A program made the translations under genes and the position numbers. DNA of 64,000 nt. It comes from Propionibacteriaceae bacterium UBA7704. GTDB lineage: Bacteria > Actinomycetota > Actinomycetes > Propionibacteriales > Propionibacteriaceae. The notes beneath the pieces were generated by a model that was given only the letters and a program-made list of their open reading frames with translations, was not told where the DNA came from and made no database searches. Below, in pieces: positions 17,011 to 51,094 of this stretch. The stretch's first letter is position 1, and every line of letters begins with the position of its first letter. Where the stretch lies: NCBI GenBank assembly GCA_002482525.1, contig DLGC01000010.1:10834-74833 (forward strand), given 5' to 3'.

Positions 17011-18999
17011 GTGATCCTCTCCGACGGCACCCGGGCCGGATTCGCCCGCACCATAGCGCTCACCATCACCGCCCTCGCGTTAACGTTCTCCGGCACAATC
17101 CCGGCACAGGCCGACACCTCGACCCCGGTCAATGTCCCCGACGCTACGTTGCGGGCCTGCCTGACCACAGCGCTGTCCGACGCTCAACTCAGCACCGATC
17201 TCACCAATGAGAATCTGGTGCAACTCAAGAGAGTGGCCTGCTCGGCATCCCCAGACAAGCCGATCGCCAACCTGACCGGCATAGAGGCAGTTTCCGACGC
17301 TGACATCATTTTTCTGGGGCTGACAACCACCACGGATGTGTCGCCGCTATCCGGGCTCCTTGGCCTGACACAGCTAGCACTCACAGCCCCCAACCTCGAA
17401 TCCGCAGGGCCGCTGTTCCAGGTGTCCACGCTCACCGCACTCAATCTGGCCGCACCGAAGGTCACTGATCTCGATTTCCTGAGCACGATGCACGACCTCG
17501 AATACCTCGCACTCCAGGTCTCCCCCCAGGCTTCCTTCGAGAGATTCCCAGACCTGCCGTCGCTATCCAGATTCTCGCTGAACATCGACACCCCCACGCT
17601 CCCGGCACTAGTCCTACCCGCAAGCGTGACCTCCCTGACGGTGCGAGATGCGTCCCTGACTAGCTTGGTCAGCCTGCCGCAAGCGGCCGGTGCCACGTCA
17701 CTGACCGTGAGCTACGCACCGGAGCTGGCCGACCTCACCGGAGTCGAAGACCTCCCTCGGCTGCGCCAGCTCAGGCTGCCTGCTGGCAAGTACACCGACC
17801 TCACCCCGGTAAGCCAGCTCACGGCTTTGGAGGAGCTTCGAGACCCCGAGGCCGCCATTGGTGATGTGTCAGCGCTGGCATCGATGACGTCGCTGAGCAC
17901 TCTCGATCTGCATGGCAACCAGCTCACCGATCTCACCGCCCTGACCGGCCTGCCGAATCTGACGACGCTGGACGTCGCCAAGAACGGCCTCACGACGCTT
18001 GGAGCATCAGGAAGCCTGTCCCGGCTCTCCGAGCTATCTGCTTCCAGCAACAGTCTCACCTCGATCGACGCACTCACCGGCGCCCACCTCACCAGCGTCA
18101 ATCTCGACAGCAACCGTCTCACCAACGTTGCGCCCCTTGCCGCCGCAGCACCGGGAGCGTGGATCAGCATCCGGTGGAACGCATTGCGCGATCTCAGCCC
18201 CCTGCCCGACACGGCGACGGTCAACGCCTACGGACAGCAATCGATGCACCCGGGAATGGCGACGGTCGGCAAGCCTTTCGACCTGGGATTGCGCGATGTC
18301 GACGGGACACCCATCTGCCCAGACTTCGGCACTAAGGTCGCATGCACCGATGGTGCGGTTGCCTATCCGGTATCGGGCACCTATCAGGGCGAGGTCAGTA
18401 CCTCCGGCAGCAAGCTCAGCTTCAGCGTCACCCAACACGCCGGTCCCGACCGGGCGTTTGCCGCCACCTATGCCCCAACGCTGTTCGGCGAACCGATTGT
18501 CGGTATGGATGTTGTCTCCTGGGTGCGGAGTTGGTCACCGAAGGCGACCTTCACCTACCGGTGGTACCGCGATGGGAAAGCGATCACCGGTGCTGCGGCG
18601 ACCGACTTCTACTACAGGGCGGGCGTTGCCGATCTCGGACACAAGCTTTCGGTCTGCGTCATCGGTCGCTATGACGGCTTCACCCCCACGAAACGGTGCT
18701 CGACGCGCAGCAGCGCCGTCAAGAAGGGCACCTTCACCCGCATTCCCCGTCCGAAGGTCACCCACAGTGAACCGGTGAGGGTCGGCACCTCACTGGCCGT
18801 CAAGACCGGACGCTGGGACGCCGGGGTACGCCTGCATTACCAGTGGCTGCGCAACGGTCGGGTGATCAAGGGCGCAACGAAGGACACCTATCGGGTGCGG
18901 CGCGGTGATCGCCGGGATCTCATCACGGTGCGCGTCAGCGGGACGAAACGCGGCTACTACACCGAGCGTGTCATCGCAGCGTCCCACCGCGTCCGCTAG
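17011..18999 (+). CDS. Secreted internalin-like leucine-rich-repeat protein with two C-terminal Y-x-W Ig-like modules (LRR paralog 1)
   Basis: GTG start and signal peptide ending PAQA. About 22-residue LRRs (LDLHGNQLTDLTALTGLPNLTTLDVAKNGLTTL...). C-terminal modules FTYRWYRDGKAITGAAATDFYY...KLSVCV and LHYQWLRNGRVIKGATKDTYRV...ITVRVSG. Collinear with 35775..37676. Confidence 0.8.
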   Translation: MILSDGTRAGFARTIALTITALALTFSGTIPAQADTSTPVNVPDATLRACLTTALSDAQLSTDLTNENLVQLKRVACSASPDKPIANLTGIEAVSDADIIFLGLTTTTDVSPLSGLLGLTQLALTAPNLESAGPLFQVSTLTALNLAAPKVTDLDFLSTMHDLEYLALQVSPQASFERFPDLPSLSRFSLNIDTPTLPALVLPASVTSLTVRDASLTSLVSLPQAAGATSLTVSYAPELADLTGVEDLPRLRQLRLPAGKYTDLTPVSQLTALEELRDPEAAIGDVSALASMTSLSTLDLHGNQLTDLTALTGLPNLTTLDVAKNGLTTLGASGSLSRLSELSASSNSLTSIDALTGAHLTSVNLDSNRLTNVAPLAAAAPGAWISIRWNALRDLSPLPDTATVNAYGQQSMHPGMATVGKPFDLGLRDVDGTPICPDFGTKVACTDGAVAYPVSGTYQGEVSTSGSKLSFSVTQHAGPDRAFAATYAPTLFGEPIVGMDVVSWVRSWSPKATFTYRWYRDGKAITGAAATDFYYRAGVADLGHKLSVCVIGRYDGFTPTKRCSTRSSAVKKGTFTRIPRPKVTHSEPVRVGTSLAVKTGRWDAGVRLHYQWLRNGRVIKGATKDTYRVRRGDRRDLITVRVSGTKRGYYTERVIAASHRVR

Positions 19000-20669
19000 G
19001 CGGCCGGTGTCGGCGAGGGCGACGGCTGAGCGGTGACCGCCGTCGGCTCGGTGTCGACGACCAAGACCACGCCGTCGCCGACAGCCCACCGTGTCCCTGC
19101 CGCGGGCTGCGTCCTGGCGACCACCAGCGTCGGGCTGGCGTTGTCGGGCACGCTGAAACCTGTGGTGGTCAGCAGCGTCCGAGCCGCCGCCACACTCATT
19201 CCGGCGACTGGGGGCACCCGGTTGTAGCCGGTGGCGAGCGTCACATCCACAGAATCCCCCACGGCGACCGCGGTGCCGGAAGCTGGTGATTGCGCCAATA
19301 CCCGGCCGGCGGGCTCGGCGGAGTCTTTGATGCGCACTCGTCCGACCTCCAAACCGACGGCCCGGAGGGCCGCCTGCGCCGAGGCGAGGTCCCCATACAG
19401 GGCAGGGACCTGCACCTGGGCAGGGCTCGAGGCGGGCGTGTCCTTGCCGCGGGGGCTCACCGTCGGAGTCGGCGTGCTCGATGGTGTGGCACTTGCAGCC
19501 GTCGGCATCGGCATGGCTGCCAGTGAGCCCGAACCAGCCATTCCCAAACCGATCCACGCCACGACGGCAATAGCCAATGCCGCGATCAACACCGGTCCAA
19601 TCAGGCGCGCCAGGCTAGACCCGGCTTCCGCACTCGGAGTGGACGGCGGTGCCAATGTCGCCGATGGCACCGGGGCGAGGGTCTGCCGGGTCGCCGGCGA
19701 CGGGCGTTCCCACGACGCTTCCATCACCCGCGTCGGCCCATCCGTGGGACGCACCGTCACCGCAGCCAGCAGCGCCTGTCGAAACTCCTCGGCATTGGCG
19801 AAACGGCCCTCGGCAGTGGTGGCCAGGGCTTTCACCACGACCCGGTCGAGCCGCCGAGCGGACGGCAGCAACGCCGACGGCACTGGCGGCGGATCCGTCA
19901 GCCGGGCGCGGAGCGTCTCGGCCATCGTGGCACGATGAAATGGCGGCTGACCGGTCAACAGGAAGTGCAGCACCGCACCGGCCTGGTAGAGATCGCTCGC
20001 CGGCCCGACCGTGCCTCCGGATGCCTGCTCCGGTGAGAGGTATGCCACGCTGCCGACAATGGTGGTGGCCGAGCGTTGGCCGGTGGTGAGCAGCACATCG
20101 TCTCCGACCACGGTGCCGCCGGCCGCATCGGCCAGCCCGAAGTCAACCAGCCGGACTGCAGCGGCGGTGATCACCTGATCAGGTGCGACATCGTGCAGGA
20201 TCACATTGCCGGGCGCGACGTCGCGGTGTACCAGCCCGGTGTCGTGGGCTGCCTGCAGGCCGCTCAAAAGCCCATCCATGACCGCCGCCGCCTGATACGG
20301 GCCCATCGGCCCACGCTCGGCCACCCATTCGGCCACGGTGGGCCCGTCAACCGCCTCCAAGGCGATCCAGGCCCTCGGCGTCGCACCAATATCGCGCAGG
20401 CCGCTGGCATATACCGCAGCAACATTGGACTGGTTCACCTCGGCGAGGCGTCCGGCTTCACGCAGAAAGGCCTCCCGGAGCGCCTGGTTCTCACTCAGGG
20501 CCGGGTGCAGCACCTTCAGCGCGACGACCCTCGGTTGGCCCTGCGCATCGAGCTGACCGAAATCCTCACAGCGGTAGACCGCCGCGGAGCCGCCAGCACC
20601 GAGGAGCTCACCGATCTGGAACCGGCCGCCGAACAGTGTCGGCTCCGGCCCGTCGGGCGAGCTGGTCAT
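18996..20669 (-). CDS. Hanks-type Ser/Thr protein kinase with one TM segment and two extracellular PASTA domains; non-canonical catalytic loop
   Basis: Trimmed to ATG 20669 (ATGA overlap with the upstream stop). Motifs LGAGGSAAVY, VALKVL, HRDVAPGN, DFG, SPE. TM segment LIGPVLIAALAIAVVAWIGLGMAG. Two PASTA-like repeats follow (VQVPALYGDLASAQAALRAVGL..., VPPVAGMSVAAARTLLTTTGF...). Confidence 0.85.
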   Translation of the reverse strand: MTSSPDGPEPTLFGGRFQIGELLGAGGSAAVYRCEDFGQLDAQGQPRVVALKVLHPALSENQALREAFLREAGRLAEVNQSNVAAVYASGLRDIGATPRAWIALEAVDGPTVAEWVAERGPMGPYQAAAVMDGLLSGLQAAHDTGLVHRDVAPGNVILHDVAPDQVITAAAVRLVDFGLADAAGGTVVGDDVLLTTGQRSATTIVGSVAYLSPEQASGGTVGPASDLYQAGAVLHFLLTGQPPFHRATMAETLRARLTDPPPVPSALLPSARRLDRVVVKALATTAEGRFANAEEFRQALLAAVTVRPTDGPTRVMEASWERPSPATRQTLAPVPSATLAPPSTPSAEAGSSLARLIGPVLIAALAIAVVAWIGLGMAGSGSLAAMPMPTAASATPSSTPTPTVSPRGKDTPASSPAQVQVPALYGDLASAQAALRAVGLEVGRVRIKDSAEPAGRVLAQSPASGTAVAVGDSVDVTLATGYNRVPPVAGMSVAAARTLLTTTGFSVPDNASPTLVVARTQPAAGTRWAVGDGVVLVVDTEPTAVTAQPSPSPTPAA

Positions 20670-21445
20670 GACGCCGCCGCGGCGTAGTCGTTGGCGAGTC
20701 TGCGCACCCGATCCACATAATCCGAGGAGTGGTTGTAAGCCCAGATCGCGCGCGTCCAGCCCGAGGAGGTGTTCAATGCGCCGCCAGCAGCGCACAGGTA
20801 GTCGGCCGCGGTCAGCGTCGCATCGTCGATCTGATCCGGATCGGCCACGCCGTCACCACTGCCGTCGCGTCCCCACGTGCGCCAGGTCGACGGCAGGAAC
20901 TGCATCGGCCCGACCGCGCGATCCCACTGGGGGTCGCCGTCGAGGCTGCCCTGGTCGCTGTCGGTGATCCGCGCAGTGTGCCTGCCGTCCAGTCGAGGCC
21001 CGCGGATCGCCGGCTCGGCCCGGCCGGTCGCGTCCAGCACCGCGCCGTCATGGCTGCCATGGCCGGATTCCACCGCTCCGATCGCAGCCAGGGTGTTCCA
21101 GCCGATTCGGCACGACGGCTTGTCGGTGCGCAGGGCCAGATCGGCAGCCGCGTAGGCCAGCACGGCCCGTTGTGGAATGCCGGTCACGCCGGCAACGCGC
21201 TGAGCCCAGGCCGGCGACACCTGCGCCACGTCGGTTCGGCTGGGCTCGGCATCAGCCTTGGCAGGCGACGCCGCCATTGACGGCTCCACGACGACGCCGG
21301 CTTCCGAGTCAGGCCCGGACGCGACGATTGCCGAGGTGCGTGACAGGTTGACCCCCGCGAGCAACGCGACCACGATGACCGCAGCCCCCGCAACGGTCAC
21401 CACCGGACGCCACCAGCCGGCGCGCCGCTCAGCCGAATCGTCCAT
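20666..21445 (-). CDS. Membrane-anchored lytic transglycosylase (SLT_2-like)
   Basis: N-terminal TM segment. [12 protein letters not shown] carries the catalytic Glu; [14 protein letters not shown] and AYNHSSDYV follow. The start overlaps the pstB stop by 17 nt, and the stop forms an ATGA overlap with the kinase start. Confidence 0.8.
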
Positions 21446-22322
21446 TGACGTAGTCGAAGGTTCGTTCGTCGACCGGATCGGTGAACATCGCCTCGGTGTC
21501 GCCGTGTTCGACGATGACGCCCGGGGCGCCCTGCGCAGCCAGGAAGAAGGCGCACTTCTGCGATACCCGCTGAGCCTGTTGCATGTTGTGGGTGACGATC
21601 ACAATGGTGACTTCGCTGCGCAGCTCGGTCATGGTGTCCTCGATCACCCGGGTGCTGGTGGGATCCAAAGCCGAGCACGGCTCGTCCATGAGGAGCACCT
21701 TGGGCTTCACCGCCAAGGAGCGGGCGATACACAGCCGCTGCTGCTGGCCACCGGAGAGGCCACCGCCGGGCTGACGAAGCCGGTCGCGGACCTCTTTCCA
21801 CAGCCCCGCCGAGGTCAACGAGCGCTGCACGATCTCGTCTTTCTCGTCGCGCCCGGCTCGGCGTCCGGTGAGCTTCAGACCGGCGATGACGTTGTCGTAG
21901 ATGCTCATCGCCGGGAACGGGTTCGGCTTCTGGAAGACCATGCCGATGTCTTTGCGGGCGTCGGTGAGCTTGCGATCTCGGTCGTAGATGTCATCGCCGT
22001 CCAGGAGCACCTCCCCGGCCATGCTGGCCGAAGGGATCAGCTCGTGCATCCGGTTGAGGATCCGCAGGAAGGTGGACTTTCCACAGCCCGAGGGGCCGAT
22101 GAGCGCGGTGACCTCTCCGGCCGGCATGACCAAGGAGACCCGATCCAAGACCTTGTGGGACCCGAACCAGGCCGACACCGAGCGGGCGTCGATGCTGGAC
22201 AGCTGACGCACGTCCGCAGTCGGGACCGACGACTGGAGGGGAACCGTCTCGGTCACCGCCGACGCCTCGTCGGGCTCGACGAGACGTCGGAGCGATTCCC
22301 GCAGCGGAGCGGAGTTGGTCAT
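21429..22322 (-). CDS. pstB: Phosphate ABC transporter ATP-binding protein
   Basis: Walker [20 protein letters not shown], signature LSGGQQQR, Walker [13 protein letters not shown], and the PstB-type C-terminus [12 protein letters not shown] 22322 has an AAGGA SD. An alternative ATG at 22370 would form an ATGA overlap with the upstream stop. Confidence 0.9.
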
Positions 22323-22366
22323 CAATGGATCCTTATCAGGGGCGAAATCGTTGGGTAGGGGCAGGC

Positions 22367-23356
22367 TCATAACAGGTTCGGCAAGGTGTCGACGATCAAC
22401 GTGGTGGCGATGACGCCGGCCGCGAGCAGCACCGGCGCCCCGATCAGCCAGGCCCAACGCCAACCCCAGCGTCGCCACAGCCACGCCGTCGCGCCGATGA
22501 GGGCAGCCAACGCCACGGTCGCGGCGATCGCCAGCGGCCAGCCGGACGCATCACTTCCCAGGGCACGTTCCTCACTCGGCAGCGCCGGGTAGGTCAACAC
22601 CCGGGCCGAAGCTGGCTGCACGGTCGTGGATTGGGTGGCGTCGATGTACAGCACACCGGTGGGGAACAGCGGCGGTCCGTCGGCGGTGATGAGTTCGAGG
22701 CGGCCTTCGCCGGCAGCGCCGTCGGCCGGTAGCGGATCACCGGCGCGGCGCAGCCCGAAGACGGTGTAGCCGGCCACCCCTTGCCCGGTGGTCACCGTCA
22801 GGGTGTCGCCGGGCTGAAGCCGTCCCAGATTCGCGAAGGGCCCGCCGTAGCTGGTCTGGCGCCCCATGATCACCGAGGTTCCCGCCTGCCCGGGCATCAC
22901 AGTGTCGCGCCGGTGACCGGGGCCTGAGCGCAGCACGGCCGCGGTCGTTCCTTCCCGGATGACCTCCGAGAGGCCCAGCCGCGGAATCTGCAGCAAGGCC
23001 ACCGGAGTGCCCGCCTCGACCAGGTCGCCGTTGACATCCAACTGCCCGACCGGGGTTTCACCCTTGGCCAGTGACGAGCGCAGCTCGTCGTAGCCGTCGA
23101 CCAGATCGCGTTGATGCTGCAGGCCGGAGAACACCACCGCCTGAGCGAAGAAGCTCAGCAGCAGCACCGAAATCGCAGTGATCGCCACCCCGGCTGCCCA
23201 CCGGGCGTCCCGGGGTGCCAGCGGACGCGGCGGCTTGGGCTTGGGATAGCGGACTCGGCGCCACCAGGCCAACAGGCGGGCTCGCACCGTGATGCGCACC
23301 GGTTTGGTCTGCTCATCGTCGTGCACCGGTGGCAGAGCGGTAAGAGTTCCGGTCAC
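22367..23356 (-). CDS. Sortase-fold membrane protein lacking the catalytic His and Cys (predicted pseudo-sortase)
   Basis: GTG 23356 forms a GTGA overlap with the upstream stop. Collinear with class E sortases as I recall them: [34 protein letters not shown] (expected ..GHR..), [14 protein letters not shown] (expected L.L.TC). No Cys anywhere in the 329 aa. One N-terminal and two C-terminal TM segments. Confidence 0.7.
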
Positions 23357-23976
23357 GATTCCTCCTGTCCGTGGCGCTGCCAGAGCTGGACGGCGAGCCA
23401 TCCCACCGATGCGAGCACGACGATGCCGGCCGCGAGTGCGGCCCAGCCGACCCAGGAGGGGTAGGCCGTGCCCGGCCAGGTGCCGGCGCCGATGCGTCCG
23501 ACGAGGAGTCGTCCCACGGCGACTCGATTTGCGCACCAGCCGGTGAACTGCACGGTGTGCCAGCCGGCGAGCGCGGATTCGGGGACGGTGAGGTCGACGC
23601 GGATTCGGCCCTTGCGGTCGGCGATCACCGTCTTCGGTGCGCCGCCGGTGCCATAGAGCACGACCTGGACCTTCTCCTTGGCTGTGAATCCGGTGGCGCG
23701 AGCCTGGGTTCGACCGCCGGCAGCGACGACGGGCTCGGTGAAGGTGACCGGAGCACCGGTGCTGGCCGGCTGGGGTTGAAGCTGTGGTTTGGCACTGCAG
23801 TGAGTGCTGGTGCTGGGGGCGTCACTGGCCGGTTCGGCGGGCTGACGAGGGCTGTCGGCGACAGCGGAGGTCGCCACGACGGCGGCCAGCAGCAGCGCAG
23901 CAACGGCCACCGCCAGTGCGGTGGCCACCGTCGAACCGATCCGTCGGCTCGACGTCAACAGAACCTGCCAACTCAT
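23353..23976 (-). CDS. Small secreted protein with a beta-sandwich-like domain and a C-terminal TM anchor
   Basis: GGAGGTGA SD. Signal peptide ending SAVA-DSP and a Pro/Gln-rich linker. Domain FTAKEKVQVVLYG...GRIRVDLTVPE...GWHTVQFTGWC, then the C-terminal helix WVGWAALAAGIVVLASVGWLAV. Confidence 0.6.
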   Translation of the reverse strand: MSWQVLLTSSRRIGSTVATALAVAVAALLLAAVVATSAVADSPRQPAEPASDAPSTSTHCSAKPQLQPQPASTGAPVTFTEPVVAAGGRTQARATGFTAKEKVQVVLYGTGGAPKTVIADRKGRIRVDLTVPESALAGWHTVQFTGWCANRVAVGRLLVGRIGAGTWPGTAYPSWVGWAALAAGIVVLASVGWLAVQLWQRHGQEES

Positions 23977-24047
23977 CAGGTCGAATCACCTCCAGCCCGG
24001 TGGCCGCCCCCACGACAGAGGGCGGCCACCGGTTGATCAATCAGGAA

Positions 24048-25691
24048 TCACTTGACCTTGAGCGTCAGCGTGCGCGAGGAGCTCGCCACGCCGGTGCTGC
24101 CGGAGTAGGTGATCTTCATCTTGTGCTTGCCCTTGGACAGCTTCTTGGTCAGCTTGACGGTGACGATGCCCTTCTTGGAGGTGGTCACCTTGGCGCTACC
24201 GACCTTCTTCTTGCCGTCATAGACGTTCACAGTTCCGGTCGGAGCGGTCACACCGGACGCGGTGACGGTGATCTTCACCTTGCCCTTCTTGGCGTGCTTC
24301 TTGGCGTTCTTGTCGAAGCTGGCCTTGACCGAGGAGCTGATCTTGGCGACTGCAACCTTGGCGGTGGTGGCCGACGCGGAGACCGAACCGGCGTTGGCGA
24401 CGATCGCGACCGAGATCGAGGTGCCGGCATCAGCGGCGGTCAGCTTGTAGCTGGCAGCGGTGGCGCCGGTGATGGTCGCACCGTTACGCATCCAGCGGTA
24501 GCTGAACGTCGGCTTGGTGACGGTTCCGGTCCAGGTGCCCGCGAAGGCGGTGAGGGTGGAACCGACCTTGGCCGAACCGTTGATGCGAGGAGCCGCGGTG
24601 GCGGTGAGCATCGGCGTAGATCCGTCGACGACGAAGCCGGCCTTCTGGGTGGTGGTACCACAGCCGGAGCCGAGGTCGCCGAAGCCGTACTCGTGGATGA
24701 CGGCCACCTGCGAGCAGACCGCGGAGGTCTCACCGACGAAGGTGGACTGCAGCAGCTTGTCGGCGTCGCTGGTGCCACTCAAACGGTCGGTGGACACCAC
24801 GTTGTACACATTGCGCGTCACCGAGAACGCAGTGTTCAGGGTGCCATCGCCCAGGATCGGATCGGAACCGGCGATCTTGCCCAGGATCACCTTGTTGGCG
24901 CCGACGGTGTTGGTGACGACCCCGTTGGTCTGCGCGATGTAGGCCGCAACCGAGAAGGGTGCGATCTCGCCGACAGCATCAATCGTGGTGCCTTCATTCT
25001 CCTGGAAGGTGGTGGTGATCCACGCAACCTGAGTCTCAGACAGGCCCAGGGTCTTCAGGAAGAAGGAGCGGCTGCCCGAACCCGTCTGCGGCAGCAGCGG
25101 GACGTAGTTGTGGCTCAACCCGTCGGTACCGGTGTAGCTGGTCGTTGTGCCGTCGAAGATGGCGGTCAACTGGGCCACGGTCAGATCCGAGGGCACCGCG
25201 GCTGCCGAGTCGGTGTTGGAGTAGGCGTAGCTCAGCGCATCCTTGGCGAAGGGGATGAAGGTGAGATCGGTACCGGCAGCCGAGGGCCCGCTCGACGAAC
25301 GCGAGTAGTCCAACTGGCCGGTGATGTCGACGCCGTTCGCCGCCGGGTAGGTCAGGCCCTTGATGGATGAGGTGAGCGCCTTCTGTCCGGAGCCCGATCC
25401 GTTCGGGCGAGTGAAGGGCAGGCCGTCCGCGCGGGTCTGGATGAGGTCGCCAGGCAGACCGGTGGTCGGATTGACGGCATCGTAGGAGCCGAGAATCTTG
25501 TTGCCCGAGCCGTCCTTGATCGCGTCAGCCATCCCATTCATTACCGACTGGGTGGTGTCGCTGCCGACACCGACCAGGGGCCGGTAGGTGGGCGTGCCCG
25601 AAGGGTCGGCGTAAGCGGGTGCCACGCCGAAGGCCACCGTGCACGCGAGTGCACCGGTGAGCACGCTGAGAGCCAGCTTGTTGGCTTTCAT
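24048..25691 (-). CDS. Secreted PstS-superfamily (PBP type 2) protein fused to a Y-x-W module and a bacterial Ig-like domain
   Basis: Trimmed to ATG 25691 (AAGGGAG SD). Signal peptide ending PAYA. PBP motifs VGVGSDTTQ, NGSGSGQKAL, LPQTGSGSRSFF. Then FSYRWMRNGATITGATAASYKLTAADAGTSISV and a Lys-rich Ig-like C-terminus (KVKITVTASG...KMKITYSG). No membrane anchor. Confidence 0.75.
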   Translation of the reverse strand: MKANKLALSVLTGALACTVAFGVAPAYADPSGTPTYRPLVGVGSDTTQSVMNGMADAIKDGSGNKILGSYDAVNPTTGLPGDLIQTRADGLPFTRPNGSGSGQKALTSSIKGLTYPAANGVDITGQLDYSRSSSGPSAAGTDLTFIPFAKDALSYAYSNTDSAAAVPSDLTVAQLTAIFDGTTTSYTGTDGLSHNYVPLLPQTGSGSRSFFLKTLGLSETQVAWITTTFQENEGTTIDAVGEIAPFSVAAYIAQTNGVVTNTVGANKVILGKIAGSDPILGDGTLNTAFSVTRNVYNVVSTDRLSGTSDADKLLQSTFVGETSAVCSQVAVIHEYGFGDLGSGCGTTTQKAGFVVDGSTPMLTATAAPRINGSAKVGSTLTAFAGTWTGTVTKPTFSYRWMRNGATITGATAASYKLTAADAGTSISVAIVANAGSVSASATTAKVAVAKISSSVKASFDKNAKKHAKKGKVKITVTASGVTAPTGTVNVYDGKKKVGSAKVTTSKKGIVTVKLTKKLSKGKHKMKITYSGSTGVASSSRTLTLKVK

Positions 25692-25841
25692 TCGAATCTC
25701 CCTTAGAGTTTCAGTTTCGGACAACCTTCTGGCTGCCTCGAACTCCCCCATCCCGAGTAATGCTTTCCACGGCTATCGGGATGGGGGTTCTTCCGTTCCA
25801 CGGCTGGTGCCGAAGCGGGAAGTTGTAGGGGCTGCGTCGAC

Positions 25842-28562
25842 TCATGGTCCGAGTCGCCTTCGTCGCAGCAGGAAGGGACCGGCTGCCAGGCCGATCACCG
25901 ATGCCACCAGTACTCCGCCGTAGATGGCCGTTGGTGGACCGTTTGTTGTGGAATCGGGCGTCGGGGCGGGCGTCTGCGACGGAAAGTCCACCGGCGTCAG
26001 GCCACTGCCCGCGCTGGGCTGCGACGCGGGCGCGGCTGCTGACGATGTCCCAGCGGGTTGGCTCGACGAACTGGCCGAAGGCTTCGGCGATGACGTGGCC
26101 GGAGTCGACCGTCGAAGGCTGTCAGCGGCTTTACCCGCCTGGGAGCGCAGCGCCGCCGGCAGCGGCGCATAGCCCTCGGGAAGCTCACCGATGGCCGTGC
26201 CGACACTCTGACCTTGGGCGCTGGTGGCGGTGTCGATCAAGTCGGCGTAGGCCCGCCGCTGCGCCGCCGGGGTCGAGGCATCGACAGCGAGATAGACGAT
26301 GCCTGTCAGCGGGTAGGCCGTGGCCGGCAGGGCATCAGCATCGGGAACCATCGAGAAGCCGGTCACCGTGCTGGAGGTGCGCGCTGCGACAGCGGCCGAC
26401 ATGCTCTTGGTCGAGGCCGACACGAAGGTGTCGGGCTGGTTGGGAACCTGCAACGCGGCCATCGGCAGTCCGAGCCGTTCGGCCTCGGCATAGCTGGTGA
26501 CCCCATTGATGAAGGCGTTGGTCCAACGCAGCTGGCCATCGCTGGTGTAGGTGCCCCCGTTGGGCAGATTCGAATTGGGATTCCAGGTGGTCTTGGAGCC
26601 GGTGTTCACCTTGAACACTCGGGTCGCCGCTGCGGCGAAGCTTGCCGCATAGGGAACCGCCTGCGACATGTCATAGCGCGGCTGGCTCTCGGTGGTGAGC
26701 ATCCGGGGCATGAGGGTCTGATCCGACTGCCCCAGGGTGTCGACGTCGGCGTCGCACAGGCACAGTGAATTCCCCGCACTGTCGGCAAGCCCTACCTTCG
26801 TCCACAGATAGGCGCCATCGGCGTCGGTCTTGGGGACCAGCGTGGAGACCTTCGCGCCGGTGGTGTTGGGCAGGTTCTTTTCCACCATCGTGGGCACCAC
26901 GCCCGCATAGCTTTTCGGCAAGTAGTAGGGGTTGATCGTCATTCCCGCGTTCTTGCTGTCGCCGTCGCGAACGTTGTCGGCCTGGCCTGCCAGAAACGCC
27001 CGAGCCTTGTCGTCGGCTTGCAGGTAGCTCCACAACGCGGCGATGGCATCCGAGCCGTTGGGCCCGACAAGCACCAGGCTTCCATTTCCGCTGAGGTTCA
27101 CGCCGGGGTTCAGCTCAGTGAATTCCCGGTCCAGGCGCAGCGCGCGAACCGGGCTTTGCCAGGTGCTGGCTGGAAGCTTCCAGGTGCTGTCCGGCACGGT
27201 GTGGAGGACGCCCAATCCCCCGACGCCCGTCGTCAAACCCAATCCGCTGCTCCAGGCGTAGGAGTTGGTGACCAGTTTCGCGATCAGCCGGGGGGTCAGC
27301 TTGATATTGGTGTAGCTGGCGCCGTCGTTGTTGGCCACATAGGCGATCCCGATCGACGCCACCGCCATCGGCGCATAGACGACCTTGGTCGCGGCCAGGG
27401 CCGAATCGGTGACCGAATCACTCACATACTTCGCCGTGATGGGACGCATGGTGAAGACGGCGGACGCCTGCCCGCTCACCAACTGCTCCCGAGCCAGGGC
27501 GTCGGCAGAACTTGTGAAGGTGAATGCCTGGGAAGTCGCGCGACACAGTTCTCGCTGCCAGGAGCTGATGGCGTTTTGCGCCAACTCCGATCCGCCCACC
27601 GGAATCTCACTACCCCCGGTGGCGCAGGCATCGGCAGTCGGACGGAAGGTGAGCGGGACCACGACTCGGTTTCCCCAATAGTCGCAGTTCGGGTTTACCG
27701 GCGACCCTTGCTGGGCAACCGGATAATCCGTCAAGTTCGTGGTGCAGTAGTTGCGCGAGGTCGAGTTGTGTTCGCCGCGGGGAACCACGACGAGCCAGCA
27801 CTGGTCGCTGGTCGCGGTGACGGTTCCGCCGCAGCCCAGGTAGGGCTGCGAAGCCGACGACTGCGTTTCAAATTCGAAAGTGGCACTGCCGTTGGATTCC
27901 ACCGGAACGGTGCGTTCGTTGGTGGTGGCGGCGTTGAAGACATCCAGGATGGGGGCGTCCTGACTGATCGAGTCGGTGGCGCCGCTGGAGTAGACCGTGC
28001 CGTCCACCGCGCGGAACGGCACGTCGAGTTCGCCGGGGTGCTTGAAGTAGGACTTGGTGAAGGTGGTACCGCGGCCATTGGCATTGCCGACGCCGGTCTC
28101 TTCACCGATGAGCACGCTGGGAGCGCTCTTCGCGTCGTACTCGAAAGCGCCCCACTCGCAGTTCTTGTAGAAATCGGCGGCCTGCGGGTCACCCCAGCAC
28201 TGCATCGCTTGCAGGAAGTTCGAGCCGAACTCATACCGGGTGCCGCCGGTCGATTCGACGATGGCTGTTGCGCCCGGCATTCCGGTGACCTTCACCGTGA
28301 CGGTCTGATCGATCAGGTCTTTGGTCTGATCCACGCTGACCGTCAGGTTCTTGAAGTCTTGATAGTGCTTGCTGGTGGCATCGCGCACGGGTTGATATGC
28401 CGCCGCCCGACTGGTGTCGGCATTCCACGCCACCGAGAGCGCTGAATCGCTGGTCGACGTGGCTCGCGCCACGGTGACACTGAACCCGGCGCCGCTTGCC
28501 ACAACCATCGCGCTGGCAGCCAGCGCACTGATCAAGGCCCACGCGGCCCGCCTTGTGTTCAT
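25842..28562 (-). CDS. Large (906 aa) secreted protein: N-terminal Cys-rich domain plus a divergent PstS-like PBP domain, with a C-terminal TM anchor
   Basis: Trimmed to ATG 28562 (GGAAGGA SD; ATGA overlap with the upstream stop). Signal peptide ending ARA. PBP-like segments IPVGGSELAQNAISSW, PMAVASIGIAYVA, AYPLTGIVYLAV, EGYAPLPAALRSQ. Ser/Pro-rich linker, hydrophobic helix, RRRRLGP tail. Confidence 0.65.
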   Translation of the reverse strand: MNTRRAAWALISALAASAMVVASGAGFSVTVARATSTSDSALSVAWNADTSRAAAYQPVRDATSKHYQDFKNLTVSVDQTKDLIDQTVTVKVTGMPGATAIVESTGGTRYEFGSNFLQAMQCWGDPQAADFYKNCEWGAFEYDAKSAPSVLIGEETGVGNANGRGTTFTKSYFKHPGELDVPFRAVDGTVYSSGATDSISQDAPILDVFNAATTNERTVPVESNGSATFEFETQSSASQPYLGCGGTVTATSDQCWLVVVPRGEHNSTSRNYCTTNLTDYPVAQQGSPVNPNCDYWGNRVVVPLTFRPTADACATGGSEIPVGGSELAQNAISSWQRELCRATSQAFTFTSSADALAREQLVSGQASAVFTMRPITAKYVSDSVTDSALAATKVVYAPMAVASIGIAYVANNDGASYTNIKLTPRLIAKLVTNSYAWSSGLGLTTGVGGLGVLHTVPDSTWKLPASTWQSPVRALRLDREFTELNPGVNLSGNGSLVLVGPNGSDAIAALWSYLQADDKARAFLAGQADNVRDGDSKNAGMTINPYYLPKSYAGVVPTMVEKNLPNTTGAKVSTLVPKTDADGAYLWTKVGLADSAGNSLCLCDADVDTLGQSDQTLMPRMLTTESQPRYDMSQAVPYAASFAAAATRVFKVNTGSKTTWNPNSNLPNGGTYTSDGQLRWTNAFINGVTSYAEAERLGLPMAALQVPNQPDTFVSASTKSMSAAVAARTSSTVTGFSMVPDADALPATAYPLTGIVYLAVDASTPAAQRRAYADLIDTATSAQGQSVGTAIGELPEGYAPLPAALRSQAGKAADSLRRSTPATSSPKPSASSSSQPAGTSSAAAPASQPSAGSGLTPVDFPSQTPAPTPDSTTNGPPTAIYGGVLVASVIGLAAGPFLLRRRRLGP

Positions 28563-30202
28563 AGCGTTGTCCTTCCGCGTGATCTTCGCGATCGGCGACG
28601 CACGAGCATCGGCGGCAGCAATACCGCAACCGCCACCAGCAGCCCCGCCGACACCATCGAGGCGTAGGCGGCCGGCGTCGGCCGAGCGAGGGGAATGGAC
28701 ACCGGGACACCCGCCACCTGGCCTTGGGGCGCTGACAGTTCTGAACCGGCTGCGATCTCGCTTCCGGTGCCTTGGGCCGCGCCTGCCTGAGCGGCGCTGC
28801 TTGCTGCCGCACCGCTGCCGGTGCCCGTCCCCGAACTGCCTGAGGCGGAGGATCCCGGGGTGGTGGACGTTTGTTTTGCGCCGCCGGTGCCGGAGGTGCA
28901 CTGGGTGGGCCCCTTCTTGTCACACGCGGCCGGATAGGGCGCGGTCTGGGCCAGTTTGTTCGCCCCGGAGGCCGAGAAGGTCGGATTGTGGCAATCCGAG
29001 ATCCCCTTGATCACCGGGTCGCCGCCCGGAATCTTCTGGATCTGGCTTTGTCCGGCCTTGACGAGGTTGATCGGCAGCGGAGAGTAGCCCAGTACCTCGG
29101 CAGACTGTTGGCCTTCGCACAGGAAGTAGGCCCCGAAGTCAGCGAGCGTGCGGCCTTTGTCGAGAGTGAACCCGTTTTGGGTCGACGTCGGCAGGATGAT
29201 GTAGGAGTAGCTCGACAGCGGATAGGTGCGCTTGTCCTTGTCGGTGTAGACCCCGTTCAGGTTCTGGGTGAGGTAATCCACCGAGTTCTTGTCGGTGTTG
29301 ATGCGCGCCTTCAGCAGCGCGACCGCGACGTTCTGCGCAGTGGGTTCGGTGTAGTAGCCGGCAGCGTTGAGGACTTTGGCCACCGGAAAGCCGGAGTTCA
29401 GCGCATAGGAATACTCGACGAAGGTGATCGCGCCCACGGCATGGGGCTGCGCAACGTAGCCGGCCACCCCATTCGACCCGGAGCGGGAGACGAAGCCCGA
29501 TCCGGGGGCCACCGGATAGTTCGAGGTCACGCCGCAGTGCCCGCTGACCAGCGGACGCCCCACCTTGCCACAGTAGGCATCCCAGTACTTCGGGTACATC
29601 TGGCGCAGCCAGATCGACACCTGTGCGGTCGCGCCGGAGCCGTCGGAGCGCACCACCGGCACGATGGGGATGGCGGGAAGATCCAGCAGCGGGTTGTCTG
29701 CCTTGATCGCCGGATCGTTCCAGCGAGTGATCGAACCGGTGAAGATCTGCGCGATGGTAGTGCCGGACAGCCGCAGATTGGTGACCCTCTTGCCGCCGAT
29801 CACCAGGTTGTACATGAAGGCGGTTCCACCGGCCACGATCGGCATGTACGCATACGGCCGTAAGGGGCGGGTGTCCTTCTCGTTGGAGTTGGAGATCGCA
29901 TAGGGAATCTCGCTGACCCCGAAGTCGGCGGTGCCGTTGGCGAAGTCGGTGCGTCCGATGGTCGATCCGGATTCCGAATAGGTGATCTTCCACTGGTAGT
30001 TGGCCCACACGTTGCGGATCCACGCCTGCAGGGCGTTGGCAGACCAGGTGGAGCCCGATCCCACGATCGGGGCATGGATACCAGACGCCTGGGCAGGCGT
30101 GACGGCGGTCAGGCCGGTGAAACCAAAGCTGATCAGCGTAAGGCCGGTAACCACAGCGACCATCCGCCACCACTGGGGGTGTGACCCCATCCTCGTACTC
30201 AT
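28559..30202 (-). CDS. pstS: Phosphate-binding protein PstS homolog with signal peptide, low-complexity linker and C-terminal TM anchor (no lipobox)
   Basis: IVGSGSTWSANAL, ESGSTIGRTDF, VRSDGSGATAQ, GAITFVEYSYAL and YPLSSYSYIILP are collinear with E. coli PstS as I recall it. The signal peptide ends AQA-SG and has no Cys. C-terminus is AGLLVAVAVLLPPMLVRRRSRRSRGR. ATGA overlaps at both ends. Confidence 0.85.
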   Translation of the reverse strand: MSTRMGSHPQWWRMVAVVTGLTLISFGFTGLTAVTPAQASGIHAPIVGSGSTWSANALQAWIRNVWANYQWKITYSESGSTIGRTDFANGTADFGVSEIPYAISNSNEKDTRPLRPYAYMPIVAGGTAFMYNLVIGGKRVTNLRLSGTTIAQIFTGSITRWNDPAIKADNPLLDLPAIPIVPVVRSDGSGATAQVSIWLRQMYPKYWDAYCGKVGRPLVSGHCGVTSNYPVAPGSGFVSRSGSNGVAGYVAQPHAVGAITFVEYSYALNSGFPVAKVLNAAGYYTEPTAQNVAVALLKARINTDKNSVDYLTQNLNGVYTDKDKRTYPLSSYSYIILPTSTQNGFTLDKGRTLADFGAYFLCEGQQSAEVLGYSPLPINLVKAGQSQIQKIPGGDPVIKGISDCHNPTFSASGANKLAQTAPYPAACDKKGPTQCTSGTGGAKQTSTTPGSSASGSSGTGTGSGAAASSAAQAGAAQGTGSEIAAGSELSAPQGQVAGVPVSIPLARPTPAAYASMVSAGLLVAVAVLLPPMLVRRRSRRSRGRTTL

Positions 30203-31440
30203 CCCGACCCGACCGCCTCCGAGCCGGAGATACCGGCACGTTCACGCCCGAGGAAGCGCCGCAGATCGCGAGCCGAAGCCCGTTGAGCGCGCGCTAAGCC
30301 CCGCTCGGTGAGGACGCCTGGTCCGCGTCCCCCCAGCAGGCGGGCAAGCATGAATAACACGAAGACCAGCACCATCAGTACGGCGGCGGCGCCGAAGCCG
30401 CGCGCGATCTGGGTGGGTTCGGGGCTCTTCACCAAGGTGAAAGTCGCAAACGGCAGCGAGGTCATCGGACCGGAGAAGGGGTTGAGATTGAAGAAGGTGG
30501 TGTAGCCGGCGGTGAGCAACACCGGACTGGTCTCGCCGATGCCGCGGGCGGTGCCGAGCACTACCGCGGTCATGAGTCCGGAGCGCGCCGTGGGGAGGGT
30601 CACATGCCACACGGTGCGAAGCCGGCTGGCACCGGTGGCCAGTGCCGCCTCTTTCAGGGTGGCCGGAACCAGTCGCAGCACGACATCGGCCGAGCGGATG
30701 ATGATCGGCAGGATCATGATGGTCACGGCCAAGGCTGCGGCGAAGCCGGACTTGTCCAGGCCGAACATGAGCACGTAGGTGGCCAGAATGAACAGCCCGC
30801 AGATGATGCTCGGCAGCGCGGTCATGGCCTCCACCACGGTGCGCAGCACTCGGGTGAACCGGGAGGGAAACTCCGCCATGCAGACCGCAGCGAGCAGCCC
30901 CAACGGGATGGAGATCGCCAACGCGATCGCGATCATGATCAAGGTGCCCACGGCGGCGTGCGCCATGCCGCCGACACTCAACGGATCCAAGGGTCCGGCC
31001 AGGGAGAGATCCTGAACCCAGAAGTTCCACTGGCTGAAGGCCGCCGACCCTCGAATGAGGGCGAACACCACGACCAGGATCAGCGCCAGCAGCAAGGTGA
31101 CGGCCGCAGAGTGGATCACCACTGCGATGATGCGGTCCTGCACCGTGACCCGATCAGCGTCCAAGCTGACCATCACCGCGTAGAGCCCGACGAAAAGCAG
31201 ATAGGCGATCGCGACGAAACCGACCGGGCTGTCAATCGGCAGCACCTGAGTGGTGAGCCAGTAGGTGATCGCCACCGCAGCGAGGGCGGCACCGACGATT
31301 CGCACTATGTCATCGGCTCGGATTCCCGACAGCGGACGGCGAATCTGCCCGGCGGCATCGGTGGTGACCTCCTCCGAGCGCACCTGGGTGCGGGCACCGA
31401 TACTCGCCAGTCCGGTCGAGGCGTTCAGCCGATCGCTCAT
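30199..31440 (-). CDS. pstA: Phosphate ABC transporter permease PstA
   Basis: Multi-TM permease with GGMAHAAVGTLIMI...IPLGLLAAVCMAEF and the EAA-like loop ALATGASRLRTVWHVTLPTA. Second permease of the pair. Confidence 0.85.
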   Translation of the reverse strand: MSDRLNASTGLASIGARTQVRSEEVTTDAAGQIRRPLSGIRADDIVRIVGAALAAVAITYWLTTQVLPIDSPVGFVAIAYLLFVGLYAVMVSLDADRVTVQDRIIAVVIHSAAVTLLLALILVVVFALIRGSAAFSQWNFWVQDLSLAGPLDPLSVGGMAHAAVGTLIMIAIALAISIPLGLLAAVCMAEFPSRFTRVLRTVVEAMTALPSIICGLFILATYVLMFGLDKSGFAAALAVTIMILPIIIRSADVVLRLVPATLKEAALATGASRLRTVWHVTLPTARSGLMTAVVLGTARGIGETSPVLLTAGYTTFFNLNPFSGPMTSLPFATFTLVKSPEPTQIARGFGAAAVLMVLVFVLFMLARLLGGRGPGVLTERGLARAQRASARDLRRFLGRERAGISGSEAVGSG

Positions 31441-31444
31441 GACG

Positions 31445-32485
31445 TCAGCTCGCCGCCCCGGATCGGGACCGTTGGATCAAGGCGCCGGCTGCGAAGTTGA
31501 TTCCCATGGTGATGATGAACAACACCAACCCGGCGGCCATCAAGGCAGACAGTTCGAACTGCGACGCCTCGCCGTTGCGCAGAGCGATCAGAGCCGACAC
31601 CGAGTTCGACCCGGTCGTCAGCACCTGCCAGTTGATGACGAAGACCGGACTGATCACCAGGTAGACCGCGATGGTCTCCCCCAGTGCCCGGCCCAGGCCG
31701 AGCATGGTGCCGCCGACGATGCCTCCGAAACCGAAGGGGTAGACGACGGTGCGGATCATTCCCCATTTGCTCGAACCCAGGGCGAGCGCGCCTTCGCGTT
31801 CGCCGACCGGCGCCTGGGTGAAGACCTCACGCATGATAGAGGCTGCGATCGGGGCCACCATCATGGCCACCACCAGGCCTGCGATGAGCGCGCTGGCGGT
31901 GAACACCGTCGGGGTGGCCAGCGGATCGTCGGGATTGAACTGCGGCGCGGCGAAGATGGGGATCCACCCCAGATAGGTGCTCAACCATTGCGCCACCGGC
32001 AGCACCTGGCCTTCTAGCCAGAACATTCCCCACAGTCCATAGACCACGCTGGGAATGGCGGCCATCAGGTCCACCACGCCAACCAGGAGTCCACGCAGGT
32101 GTTTGGGGGCGTATTCGGAGATGTAGGTGGCTGTGCCCAGCGCCAACGGGAGGGCCACGGCGATCGCGATCACCGCAATGGTCACGGTTCCGAAGAGGAC
32201 CGCCGCAATCCCGAAGCGGTGCGAGTTCGGCTCCCAGGCCTGTTCGGTGAAGAAGGAGAATCCGGCCGCTGACACCGCCTCCGCACCACGCACGGCCAGG
32301 AACAGCCCGACCAAGGTCATTAACAGCAGTACCGCGACGCCGCCGCCGTGGGTGACGATGCCGAAGGCACGATCCGAGCCACCCAGCCGTGCCGTGATCG
32401 CCCTGGGCGAATCCGGTTGCGGACGCACGACGACCTCCGGTTCGGGTGGACGTGCCACCTGACCCAGCACCGCGGGGTTCGGCAT
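31445..32485 (-). CDS. pstC: Phosphate ABC transporter permease PstC
   Basis: Multi-TM permease with FGIAAVLFGTV...LPLALGTATYISEYAP and EGALALGSSKWGMIRTVV. First gene of the chain; 4-nt gap to pstA. Confidence 0.85.
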   Translation of the reverse strand: MPNPAVLGQVARPPEPEVVVRPQPDSPRAITARLGGSDRAFGIVTHGGGVAVLLLMTLVGLFLAVRGAEAVSAAGFSFFTEQAWEPNSHRFGIAAVLFGTVTIAVIAIAVALPLALGTATYISEYAPKHLRGLLVGVVDLMAAIPSVVYGLWGMFWLEGQVLPVAQWLSTYLGWIPIFAAPQFNPDDPLATPTVFTASALIAGLVVAMMVAPIAASIMREVFTQAPVGEREGALALGSSKWGMIRTVVYPFGFGGIVGGTMLGLGRALGETIAVYLVISPVFVINWQVLTTGSNSVSALIALRNGEASQFELSALMAAGLVLFIITMGINFAAGALIQRSRSGAAS

Positions 32486-32927
32486 CCAGTACTCCTGCTT
32501 TCCGTGCGGCCCCGCGATTGCGAGTCCGACGGCGTCAGCGTGCCAAAGGCGTCGCTGTCACCGTCGCGAGCTAGGTATCGGAATGCCCCGTGTCAGATGA
32601 ACACCAGGAAACCGCTAACCCTCGGTCAGCGTCGCGCCGCGGTGCGGGCACGGGCACCACAGGCCTGCAGCAGCCGGGAAGACGGCTTAGTCGCCCCGCA
32701 GCGCACGAGCCGAGCCGATCCGTTAAGACGAACTGATGAGTTGGATGAAGTTGCCCTGAGAATTCATCCATTCGGACGATAAGTCCCCCGCGAGGAGACG
32801 CCACCATCACCGCATTGCCATGCGGGGATCACCGTCTGGACAACTGCCAGCCATCTGGTGTTGACGTCGCCGTGTCACCATTCGAGTCGAGGCCCTGCGT
32901 TCCTGGCCGAGCGAAAGGCAGGTCGGT

Positions 32928-51089: not shown

Positions 51090-51094
51090 CGCCG

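Follow-up and report, generated by a model that had tools for sequence, protein, structure and literature searches.

Within a 64,000-nucleotide stretch of contig DLGC01000010.1 from Propionibacteriaceae bacterium UBA7704 (hereafter the window, to which all coordinates refer), ten consecutive minus-strand open reading frames (ORFs) at 18996-32485 combine the genes of a Pst-type phosphate importer with genes for tethered and secreted surface proteins, a catalytically dead sortase homologue, a lytic transglycosylase and a PASTA kinase. We read this cluster, with a probability of roughly 45%, as a conserved actinobacterial paralogue of the Pst importer that carries a membrane-tethered accessory complex scaffolded by the pseudo-sortase. 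The composition of the cluster and the linkage of its genes are direct observations, while the mechanism is predicted from the sequences. The genes and two non-coding elements of the cluster are, in the direction of transcription:

31445..32485, minus strand: pstC permease, 346 amino acids (aa), six transmembrane (TM)-like segments; TIGR02138 score 238.3 against a cut-off of 196.45, with a PF00528 match.
30199..31440, minus strand: pstA permease, 413 aa; TIGR00974 score 197.7 against a cut-off of 193.45, residues 103-370 matched.
28559..30202, minus strand: PstS-like binding protein, 547 aa; PF12849 E 6e-35; TIGR00975 score 191 against a cut-off of 205.
25842..28562, minus strand: 906-aa TM-tethered protein (p906), assigned by structure model, Foldseek and hhalign.
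25692..25841, minus strand: structured intergenic RNA of 150 nucleotides (nt) with three hairpins by folding, 5' of the next gene.
24048..25691, minus strand: secreted third PstS-family periplasmic binding protein (PBP) with immunoglobulin (Ig)-like domains (PBP/Ig; its family is called PBP3 below), 547 aa; Big_3_5 at residues 471-546.
23997..24032, minus strand: 15-bp GC-rich hairpin by folding, without a U-tail, directly 3' of the PBP/Ig gene.
23353..23976, minus strand: small surface protein, 207 aa, with a signal peptide, one Ig/MG2-like domain and a C-terminal TM helix.
22367..23356, minus strand: dead class-E-like sortase homologue, 329 aa, three TM helices, C-terminal LPNLL; PF04203 score 54.1.
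21429..22370, minus strand: pstB ATPase, 313 aa, with an N-terminal extension of about 55 aa; TIGR00972 E 2e-101.
20666..21445, minus strand: SLT-type lytic transglycosylase, 259 aa, with an N-terminal anchor; PF13406 (SLT_2).
18996..20669, minus strand: PASTA Ser/Thr kinase, 557 aa, with a kinase domain, a TM helix and two PASTA domains; Pkinase E 7e-27, PASTA matched twice.

An initial annotation made from the sequence alone had given the same order and coordinates for the ten genes, and these held: every ORF was confirmed, and independent gene calling on the 277-kb ENA contig and on a Logan contig returned the same ten genes. The start of the PBP/Ig gene at 25691, giving 547 aa, amends that annotation. 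The GC content at third codon positions (GC3) is uniform over all ten genes (0.79-0.87). Between pstC and pstA lies a gap of 4 nt; ATGA overlaps join pstA to pstS, pstS to the p906 gene and the SLT gene to the kinase gene, a GTGA overlap joins the 207-aa gene to the sortase-like gene, and pstB overlaps the SLT gene by 17 nt. All of these junctions had been listed correctly, as had the only two gaps exceeding 50 nt (150 nt at 25692-25841 and 71 nt at 23977-24047), while a sixth overlap had been missed: the sortase-like gene and pstB share ATGA at 22367-22370. The six overlapping junctions point to translational coupling. To call the whole "one coupled 10-gene chain" was nevertheless too strong: because conserved RNA structures in the two gaps set the PBP/Ig gene apart, the chain is better described as three tightly coupled blocks, namely pstC-pstA-pstS-p906, PBP/Ig alone, and 207-aa gene-dead sortase-pstB-SLT-kinase.

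The cluster departs, as had been proposed, from the canonical order pstS-pstC-pstA-pstB; the order here is pstC-pstA-pstS-[4 genes]-pstB, and PstS is not a lipoprotein. PstC and PstA score above the curated Pst equivalog cut-offs (TIGR02138 and TIGR00974). According to a hydropathy scan, PstA has eight TM-like segments in total, including extra ones within an N-terminal extension of about 100 aa. For PstB, TIGR00972 is the best family by far. No phoU gene was found within the cluster and no second pst operon within the 64-kb window. The same hydropathy scan assigned a signal peptide and a C-terminal TM anchor to PstS, p906 and the 207-aa protein, a signal peptide and no anchor to PBP/Ig, and three TM segments to the sortase homologue. 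Of the "five surface-protein genes" first described, three turned out to be PstS-fold paralogues.

The cluster is widespread and its order is old. We found 765 database relatives of the sortase homologue, and a scan of genome collections showed the dead sortase to be encoded in 477 species-level genomes. The best 80 loci were fetched and the window proteins mapped onto them (loci carry L numbers below, L003-L005 being those of the window's clade); denominators of all synteny counts are the loci with enough flanking sequence. The pstB gene lies directly 3' of the dead sortase in 74 of 75 loci, the remaining case being an overlap. Upstream of the dead sortase, p906 was found in 58/59 loci, the third PBP in 56/60 and the PstS-like protein in 54/59, and the five loci without PstS all belong to Promicromonospora and have clusters that extend past the flank. 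Carriers comprise Microbacteriaceae, Promicromonospora/Myceligenerans, Cellulomonas, Sanguibacter, Rarobacter, Aeromicrobium, Propionibacteriaceae and metagenome-assembled genomes (MAGs) of Bifidobacteriaceae, and further Jiangella, Amycolatopsis and other Pseudonocardiales, Micromonosporaceae (Micromonospora/Actinoplanes) and Streptomyces. The order pstC-pstA-pstS-906aa-PBP3-...-dead sortase-pstB is thereby found in several (at least six) actinobacterial orders, Micrococcales and Propionibacteriales among them, and gene calls combined with Pfam matches gave the same layout in two complete genomes, those of Streptomyces sp. NBC_01224 and Agromyces badenianii. Propionibacteriaceae MAG UBA8946 is the closest genome record, with 98% identity across the sortase homologue.

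Comparing gene neighbourhoods across Actinobacteria, as the initial annotation had suggested, showed the inserted genes linked to pst genes in every locus examined. Because the gene order recurs across several actinobacterial orders, a strain-specific insertion without a link to pst elsewhere is decisively refuted, and the view of the cluster as a dedicated module and not an accident stands. Identities to the window proteins of only 27-60% indicate an old vertical or otherwise long-standing linkage and no recent island. In five genomes (Microbacterium album, Cryobacterium melibiosiphilum, Compostimonas suwonensis and two MAGs) the whole cluster occurs twice, with divergent copies (L022 and L037, L023 and L049, L030 and L075, L047 and L051, L061 and L062); in at least two of these pairs one copy has the kinase gene and the other lacks it. 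Two whole copies per genome fit a specialised paralogue and not a housekeeping system.

The protein encoded directly upstream of pstB is a sortase homologue. PF04203 matched the window protein with 54.1 against 26.6, over profile positions 1-83 of 125 only, and the class E sortase model NF033747 scored 70.6, below its cut-off of 160. A search with a profile of the family reached the solved sortases 5go5, 5cuw and 5uus (best E 3.6e-15), the alignment to class E and class D sortases covering the N-terminal half only. At the catalytic His the family has Arg ('GRQ' aligned to 'aGHr' of the solved sortases). The Cys of the TLxTC motif is present in 0 of 84 loci, Streptomyces included, and where the position is readable it is mostly Ala or Gly, in sequences such as 'RLELxTADG' and 'GRLTLxTA'. 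The window protein contains no Cys at all, as its earlier description as "Cys-less" implied. Because both the catalytic His and the catalytic Cys are replaced, this protein cannot carry out transpeptidation. Compared with class E sortases, the homologue has two extra C-terminal TM helices. It ends in LPNLL in the window (22370-22384, the last five codons), and across the 84 loci most proteins end in LPNL[L/I] and nearly all others in one-residue variants, with a single clear exception that is apparently cut by a contig end. The pentapeptide LPNL[L/I] resembles a sorting pentapeptide and could sit in a sortase groove, either that of the protein itself or that of a neighbour.

The small protein encoded directly upstream of the dead sortase gives a clue to the origin of the pair. 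The 207-aa protein of the window matched no family, MG2 was weakly matched by 10 of 30 of its orthologues, and the Ig proteins that stand beside the dead sortase in Streptomyces have a C-terminal domain homologous to its own. These Streptomyces proteins (L079:8458-9873 and L083:13693-15063) carry LASTG followed by a TM helix and a basic tail, which is a class E sorting signal. In Streptomyces, a live sortase substrate is encoded beside a dead enzyme. Anchor motifs of other lineages are LPATG (L078), LADTG (L082) and a degenerate 'G[IV]PxWxWW' in Microbacteriaceae; the window's clade has WPGTA (window, before the TM helix and with a weak basic tail) and WPGTG (L004). PstS and p906 of the window have TM helices with RRR tails and no LPXTG/LAXTG-type motif; sequence motifs next to the TM helix are conserved on both proteins. 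The LAxTG motif on the adjacent Streptomyces Ig protein indicates that the two descend from a sortase and its substrate, of which the former would have lost catalysis and probably kept binding. A 'P-x-T-A-x-Y' motif shared by the three anchored proteins of the window ahead of their anchors was considered as a new sorting signal and discarded, being unconserved beyond the closest relatives.

Two further inserted proteins turned out to be degenerate relatives of PstS. No Pfam, NCBIfam or PDB sequence match was obtained for p906, and its database relatives are annotated only as 'hypothetical' or 'PBP domain-containing'. An AlphaFold2 model calculated with database homologues as input (pLDDT 82, pTM 0.83) divides the protein into a disulfide-rich β-sandwich (residues ~36-312), a PstS-fold domain interrupted by a large insertion (~315-820), a linker, a TM helix and an RRRR tail. 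Foldseek matched residues ~315-820 to PstS structures (E 3e-11 to 1e-9, TMt 0.66-0.76) and hhalign aligned p906 to the PstS-like family with 96.6% probability, both of which bear out its earlier labelling as PBP-like. The PstS ligand motifs are replaced (GSGSTW by GSEL, RSDGSG by GPxGxDA). For the N-terminal domain, modelled with a pLDDT of 88 and conserved cysteines, no PDB fold match was found (best E 0.018, to generic β-sandwiches), and hhalign gave no relation to the WxLIP-like and Ig463 families; the domain is confined to the N-terminus of proteins of ~800-1000 aa (342 clusters) and occurs in no other architecture. As modelled, p906 is shown to join a novel predicted β-sandwich to a PstS fold devoid of phosphate ligands. 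The N-terminal 350 aa of PBP/Ig are orthologous to stand-alone proteins of ~360-400 aa elsewhere. Among these third-PBP orthologues, 18 of 34 matched PF12849 (PBP_like_2; best E 8.5e-12), hhalign against the PstS-like family reached 75% over the N-lobe only, and the SGT(R) motif is kept, with Asp at the T10 position.

In contrast to these two paralogues, the PstS-like protein itself has an oxyanion pocket that is, judged by its residues, nearly intact. The protein consists of a signal peptide, a PstS domain, a conserved Cys-rich extension, a low-complexity linker of ~100 aa, a C-terminal TM helix and an Arg-rich tail; PDB PstS chains align to it at E 1.7e-27, a conserved LPPxL-RRR motif marks the TM anchor, and no lipobox was found on it. 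Numbered on what we take to be the E. coli PstS sequence, S38, R135, S139 and G140 are invariant in 37 orthologues from several orders, T10 is Thr or Ser, and T141 is Thr, Ala or Ser (Ala in the window). Two positions are invariantly changed, F11, a backbone contact, to Trp and D56 to Glu, a signature that may alter oxyanion selectivity.

These changes bear on the alternative that survives best, which is that the importer serves a different substrate (phosphite, arsenate, pyrophosphate or a small organophosphate from wall or teichoic polymers or extracellular DNA), with the extra PstS-fold proteins binding a polymer or precursor. The invariant D56E and F11W, the variable T141, a TIGR00975 score beneath the PstS equivalog cut-off and the remodelled pockets of the two further paralogues all speak for such a shift, and two divergent cluster copies in one genome would fit different specificities. 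We nevertheless consider it unlikely, given that five of the eight canonical ligand positions retain the E. coli residue throughout the orthologues, with only conservative variation at T10 and T141, that a Glu can in principle accept a proton like Asp56, that PstC and PstA pass the Pst equivalog thresholds, and that none of the cluster versions was found to encode a phosphatase, nuclease or other hydrolase domain. The idea, raised at the outset, that the module captures a phosphorylated polymer fared poorly on the same evidence: nothing was found that points there, no hydrolase domain was detected and the sole intact pocket looks orthophosphate-like.

The two genes downstream of pstB belong to the cluster less firmly than those upstream. 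The kinase follows pstB in 27 of 60 loci and the SLT protein in 16 of 53, and both are accordingly facultative; that they extend the module, as had been suggested, is true of the window, where both are coupled to it, and does not extend to the core. The SLT_2 match (PF13406, 30.4 against a cut-off of 24.3) is partial, covering profile positions 152-200 of 292, and the protein scored far under the cut-offs of the MltB NCBIfam models, whereas a catalytic-type 'ES' motif (IGAVESGHG) is conserved among its orthologues. The kinase, with its TM helix at residues 360-378, scored 260 against a cut-off of 450 for PknB_PASTA_kin (NF033483). Its catalytic loop reads HRDVAPGN in place of the canonical HRDxKPxN, and all 29 of 29 cluster-linked kinases share HRDx[S/T/A]PxN, in which Ser, Thr or Ala replaces the Lys; HRD, Asn, DFG and the Lys of VAxK are usually kept. 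Its activity is uncertain because the catalytic loop lacks the conserved Lys, and the cluster-linked kinases form a distinct subfamily, possibly of low activity.

That the Pst complex mainly acts as a sensor, signalling the status of phosphate or of the wall to the neighbouring kinase or to a response regulator with transport being secondary, is suggested by the translational coupling of the PASTA kinase here and its position after pstB in the loci counted above, and by a gene for a GerE-type response regulator (32928-33644) that is divergent from pstC and separated from it by 442 bp. In E. coli and M. tuberculosis, Pst doubles as a phosphate sensor, and the M. tuberculosis pst locus contains pknD. 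One Pst system of M. tuberculosis is moreover required for phosphate-responsive regulation (PMC4996455). We regard a primary sensor as quite improbable, however, with the kinase absent from more than half of the loci and devoid of the conserved Lys in its loop, upstream regulators that are not conserved, and no phoU in the cluster. An inverted repeat in the pstC upstream region (TGGATGAA-N13-TTCATCCA, 32742-32770) was examined as a conserved operator and rejected, being absent from all other loci.

In most lineages, the genes of the third PBP and the small protein are separated by two additional ones. The first is for a Big_3_5 Ig protein of ~450 aa whose C-terminus, ...YxATLTLTLI, is strictly conserved, the second for a TM-anchored WxLIP-like protein of ~390 aa; all 28 of 28 tested members of the latter family match PF06030 (WxL-interacting peptidoglycan-binding), albeit weakly (best E 1.5e-8). 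No Pfam WxL domain was detected in the Ig proteins with the WxL-like C-terminus. In the window's clade (L003-L005) the WxLIP-like gene is missing and Big_3_5 domains are fused onto the third PBP, and Streptomyces has a shorter form, pstC-pstA-pstS-(p906-PBP3)-Ig-dead sortase-pstB.

The WxLIP_PGBD-like TM protein of most lineages, the Ig protein with its WxL-like end, the anchored Ig-like and MG2-like proteins and the sortase ancestry would all suit a surface or adhesion complex, that is, a WxL/Csc-like wall assembly energised or assembled by a Pst-like transporter that imports no nutrient. This appears very improbable to us: PstC and PstA are type I importer permeases above the Pst equivalog cut-offs, no mechanotransmission-type architecture of ATP-binding cassette (ABC) transporters was seen, a Pfam WxL domain was not detected, and pst genes, PstS paralogues and dead sortase are all retained in the two groups without the WxLIP-like gene, Streptomyces and the window's clade.

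The two gaps within the cluster are both strongly structured. The 150-nt gap folds with a minimum free energy of -61.8 kcal/mol (z -3.75) and the 71-nt gap with -42.1 kcal/mol (z -4.36). The 150-nt element is kept in L003, L004 and L005, with compensatory changes in 3 pairs, and a gap of ~100-220 nt between p906 and PBP3, typically with three hairpins, is nearly universal. A covariance model of the window's clade gave 10 weak matches elsewhere, all in the p906-PBP3 gap and 9 of them on the coding strand. A Microbacteriaceae model, to which the window's element is linked just weakly, matched 33 loci, with 32 matches in that gap, among loci L006-L074. In the Microbacteriaceae/Promicromonospora element, 8 of 13 pairs show changes on both sides and 93.6% of cells pair, values that were reached by 0 of 500 shuffles and stood far above those of slid controls, in an alignment that was fitted to the model and so favours covariation.

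The apical loop of hairpin 1 is, in addition, complementary to a segment 3' of hairpin 3, with lineage-specific sequences (CCCCCC/GGGGGG, UUUCCC/GGGAAA, GCCCUC/GAGGGC, GCCCA/UGGGC and GCUCC/GGAGC) and a complementarity reached by 0 of 500 permutations of the partners, which suggests a candidate pseudoknot. No Rfam family reached its gathering threshold, and at E<=1 the sole match in 23900-25900 was a chance one. The third PBP gene may thereby have a new kind of cis-regulatory leader in the RNA of the p906-PBP3 gap. The hairpin 3' of the PBP/Ig gene has counterparts of different sequence in the corresponding position of L004 and L005, and a strong hairpin follows the orthologous PBP3 gene in 23 of 61 loci, mostly in the kinase-linked subfamily; by analogy, it resembles the mRNA-stabilising hairpins after binding-protein genes of other ABC operons. 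The structures in the gaps are probably attenuators, stabilisers or a regulatory leader. A consensus scan for sigma-70 promoters and U-tailed terminators found nothing above shuffles.

A chance juxtaposition, in which an ordinary pstSCAB would have been interrupted by an unrelated island of surface-protein genes, might draw on the two structured gaps, which could mark transcript boundaries, and on the slightly lower GC content of the inserted genes (0.64-0.65 against 0.68-0.69 in the downstream part), yet it is excluded by the comparative data: the gene order recurs over several orders with near-complete penetrance, start/stop overlaps join the inserted genes to pst genes on both sides, three inserted genes are PstS paralogues amid uniform GC3, and the identities of the window proteins to their relatives argue against recent horizontal copies of one mobile island.

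For the reading that we favour, a Pst importer paralogue with a scaffolded accessory complex, the sequences suggest the following mechanism. Tethered PstS would capture orthophosphate or a closely similar oxyanion in the wall zone and hand it over to PstCA, and PstB would power the import. The dead sortase, having presumably kept the sorting-signal groove and spanning the membrane three times, would act non-covalently, as a receptor or scaffold that keeps the C-termini of the anchored proteins, which resemble sorting signals, beside the permease. The degenerate PstS paralogues and the Ig proteins could be structural components of the complex or serve as a relay in it. Secreted PBP/Ig would be made in amounts different from the rest, its gene being bracketed by the leader RNA and the 3' hairpin. 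In the roughly one third to one half of loci with enough flank that have them, the window included, the divergent PASTA kinase and the SLT protein plausibly couple this complex to the state of the peptidoglycan or open the wall for it.

Several points weigh against this reading. The scaffold role of the dead sortase is purely what we infer, and the label 'paralogue' is drawn from the duplicated clusters and from Streptomyces species, which have a canonical pstSCAB elsewhere in the genome. Both PstS (TIGR00975) and PstB (TIGR00972, 338.5 bits against 343.2 and so 5 bits short) fall slightly under their NCBIfam equivalog cut-offs, and the invariant D56E could shift ligand specificity. The complex is not uniform, as the window's clade does without the WxLIP-like and separate Ig genes of most lineages and the 207-aa protein is detectable in 45 of 75 loci only. 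Lastly, no recognisable Pho box was found upstream of the cluster, and the upstream regulators vary between a response regulator (window), an ECF sigma factor (Agromyces) and a TetR protein (Streptomyces).

More tentatively still, the parts may be combined into one picture that, taken as a whole, we hold to be on the unlikely side: dead sortases would now serve as non-covalent receptors of sorting signals and build, around a dedicated Pst importer and in hundreds of actinobacterial species, a wall-penetrating "phosphate antenna" of tethered PstS, two degenerate PstS-fold proteins and Ig proteins, and an undescribed pseudoknotted leader RNA would control the gene of the secreted binding protein. 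If the favoured mechanism holds, thick-walled bacteria would extend a high-affinity importer outward, with a binding protein on a long leash and a scaffold in place of a lipoprotein at the membrane surface. It would also give a first role to a conserved pseudo-sortase, an enzyme fold reused for binding or as a scaffold, with its former LAxTG substrate still adjacent in Streptomyces.

Searches of the open literature returned no description of the cluster or of the Cys-less sortase family, a study of Actinoplanes sortases dealing with other genes, and the earlier statement that this is not a described system is in line with that result. Four protein families of the cluster are uncharacterised, namely those of the dead sortase, of p906 with its new domain, of the third PBP and of the small Ig protein, and the cluster also holds a candidate new RNA motif. 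The four families and the candidate cis-regulatory RNA are testable in cultivable Microbacteriaceae, Cellulomonas and Streptomyces. Current annotations of these genes read "sortase", "hypothetical protein" and "PBP domain-containing protein", and the pstB and pstCA genes of the cluster are likely to be mistaken for those of the housekeeping system.

Elsewhere in the window, the flanks encode methylmalonyl-CoA carboxyltransferase subunits, rpiB, a GH15 enzyme, typA and a MoxR/DUF58 cluster. Genes for large secreted leucine-rich-repeat proteins flank the pst cluster on both sides (17011-18999 and 35775-37676, both plus strand), a pairing seen only in the closest relatives. The first of them overlaps the stop codon of the kinase gene convergently, and the protein has C-terminal repeats similar to the central Ig-like repeats of PBP/Ig (24-36% identity). 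A group at 47187-52399 (plus strand) encodes a GPDPase-membrane-domain protein, DUF4129 and DUF4350 proteins, a MoxR AAA ATPase and a DUF58 protein, and is apparently unrelated to the cluster.

Among known systems, the canonical high-affinity importer PstSCAB (E. coli; cryo-EM entries 9k3s/9k3x; PstS structures 1ixh, 8ods and 1pc3) is one of the closest, with clear homologues in PstC, PstA and PstB, a shared PstS fold and the majority of the phosphate-ligand residues in common. It differs in gene order, given here as pstC-pstA-pstS...pstB, in that phoU is lacking and five to seven extra genes are embedded here, and in the placement of PstS, which is periplasmic or lipid-anchored in canonical systems and sits on a C-terminal TM helix with a long linker here. 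D56E and F11W are invariant in the cluster, and PstA and PstB are N-terminally extended.

Like the pst locus of M. tuberculosis, the cluster is actinobacterial, encodes several PstS paralogues and includes a Ser/Thr kinase gene among the pst genes (there pknD). The M. tuberculosis locus is duplicated and comprises two Pst systems and a third PstS (PMC4996455). PstS1-3 are lipoproteins with intact sites, unlike the TM-tethered and degenerate paralogues of the window; the kinase there has a β-propeller sensor, whereas the window kinase has PASTA domains and belongs to the HRDx[S/T/A]PxN group; and sortase homologues, Ig proteins and a counterpart of the 906-aa protein are all lacking in that locus.

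Class E sortases (e.g. Streptomyces coelicolor SrtE1, PDB 5cuw, with LAxTG substrates) are the best family match of the dead sortase and share its membrane anchoring. They differ from it in their catalytic His and Cys, both replaced here, in the two extra TM helices and the LPNL[L/I] end of the cluster protein, and in its gene always lying beside pstB.

With a TM-anchored protein matching WxLIP_PGBD, one or two Ig-rich secreted proteins that end in a conserved hydrophobic motif and a small anchored protein, most lineages, though not the window, resemble the layout of the Firmicute WxL/WxLIP (Csc) clusters, which consists of WxLIP, WxL and small LPXTG proteins. Such clusters are defined by a WxLIP protein (PGBD, HBD and a TM helix) together with two or more proteins with WxL domains, all within a few genes (Hassan et al. 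2023, PMC10599100), and as presented in that study they have no association with ABC transporters or sortase homologues. The window, having no WxLIP-like gene, falls outside this definition, and the WxLIP (DUF916) matches of the other lineages are weak.

Finally, binding domains that are tethered to the membrane or fused to the permease occur in OpuA, GlnPQ and archaeal TM-anchored substrate-binding proteins, where they raise the local concentration at the permease. Tethers of the OpuA/GlnPQ type are N-terminal anchors or permease fusions, whereas the cluster described here combines a C-terminal TM helix and a sorting-signal-like basic tail with a dead sortase.

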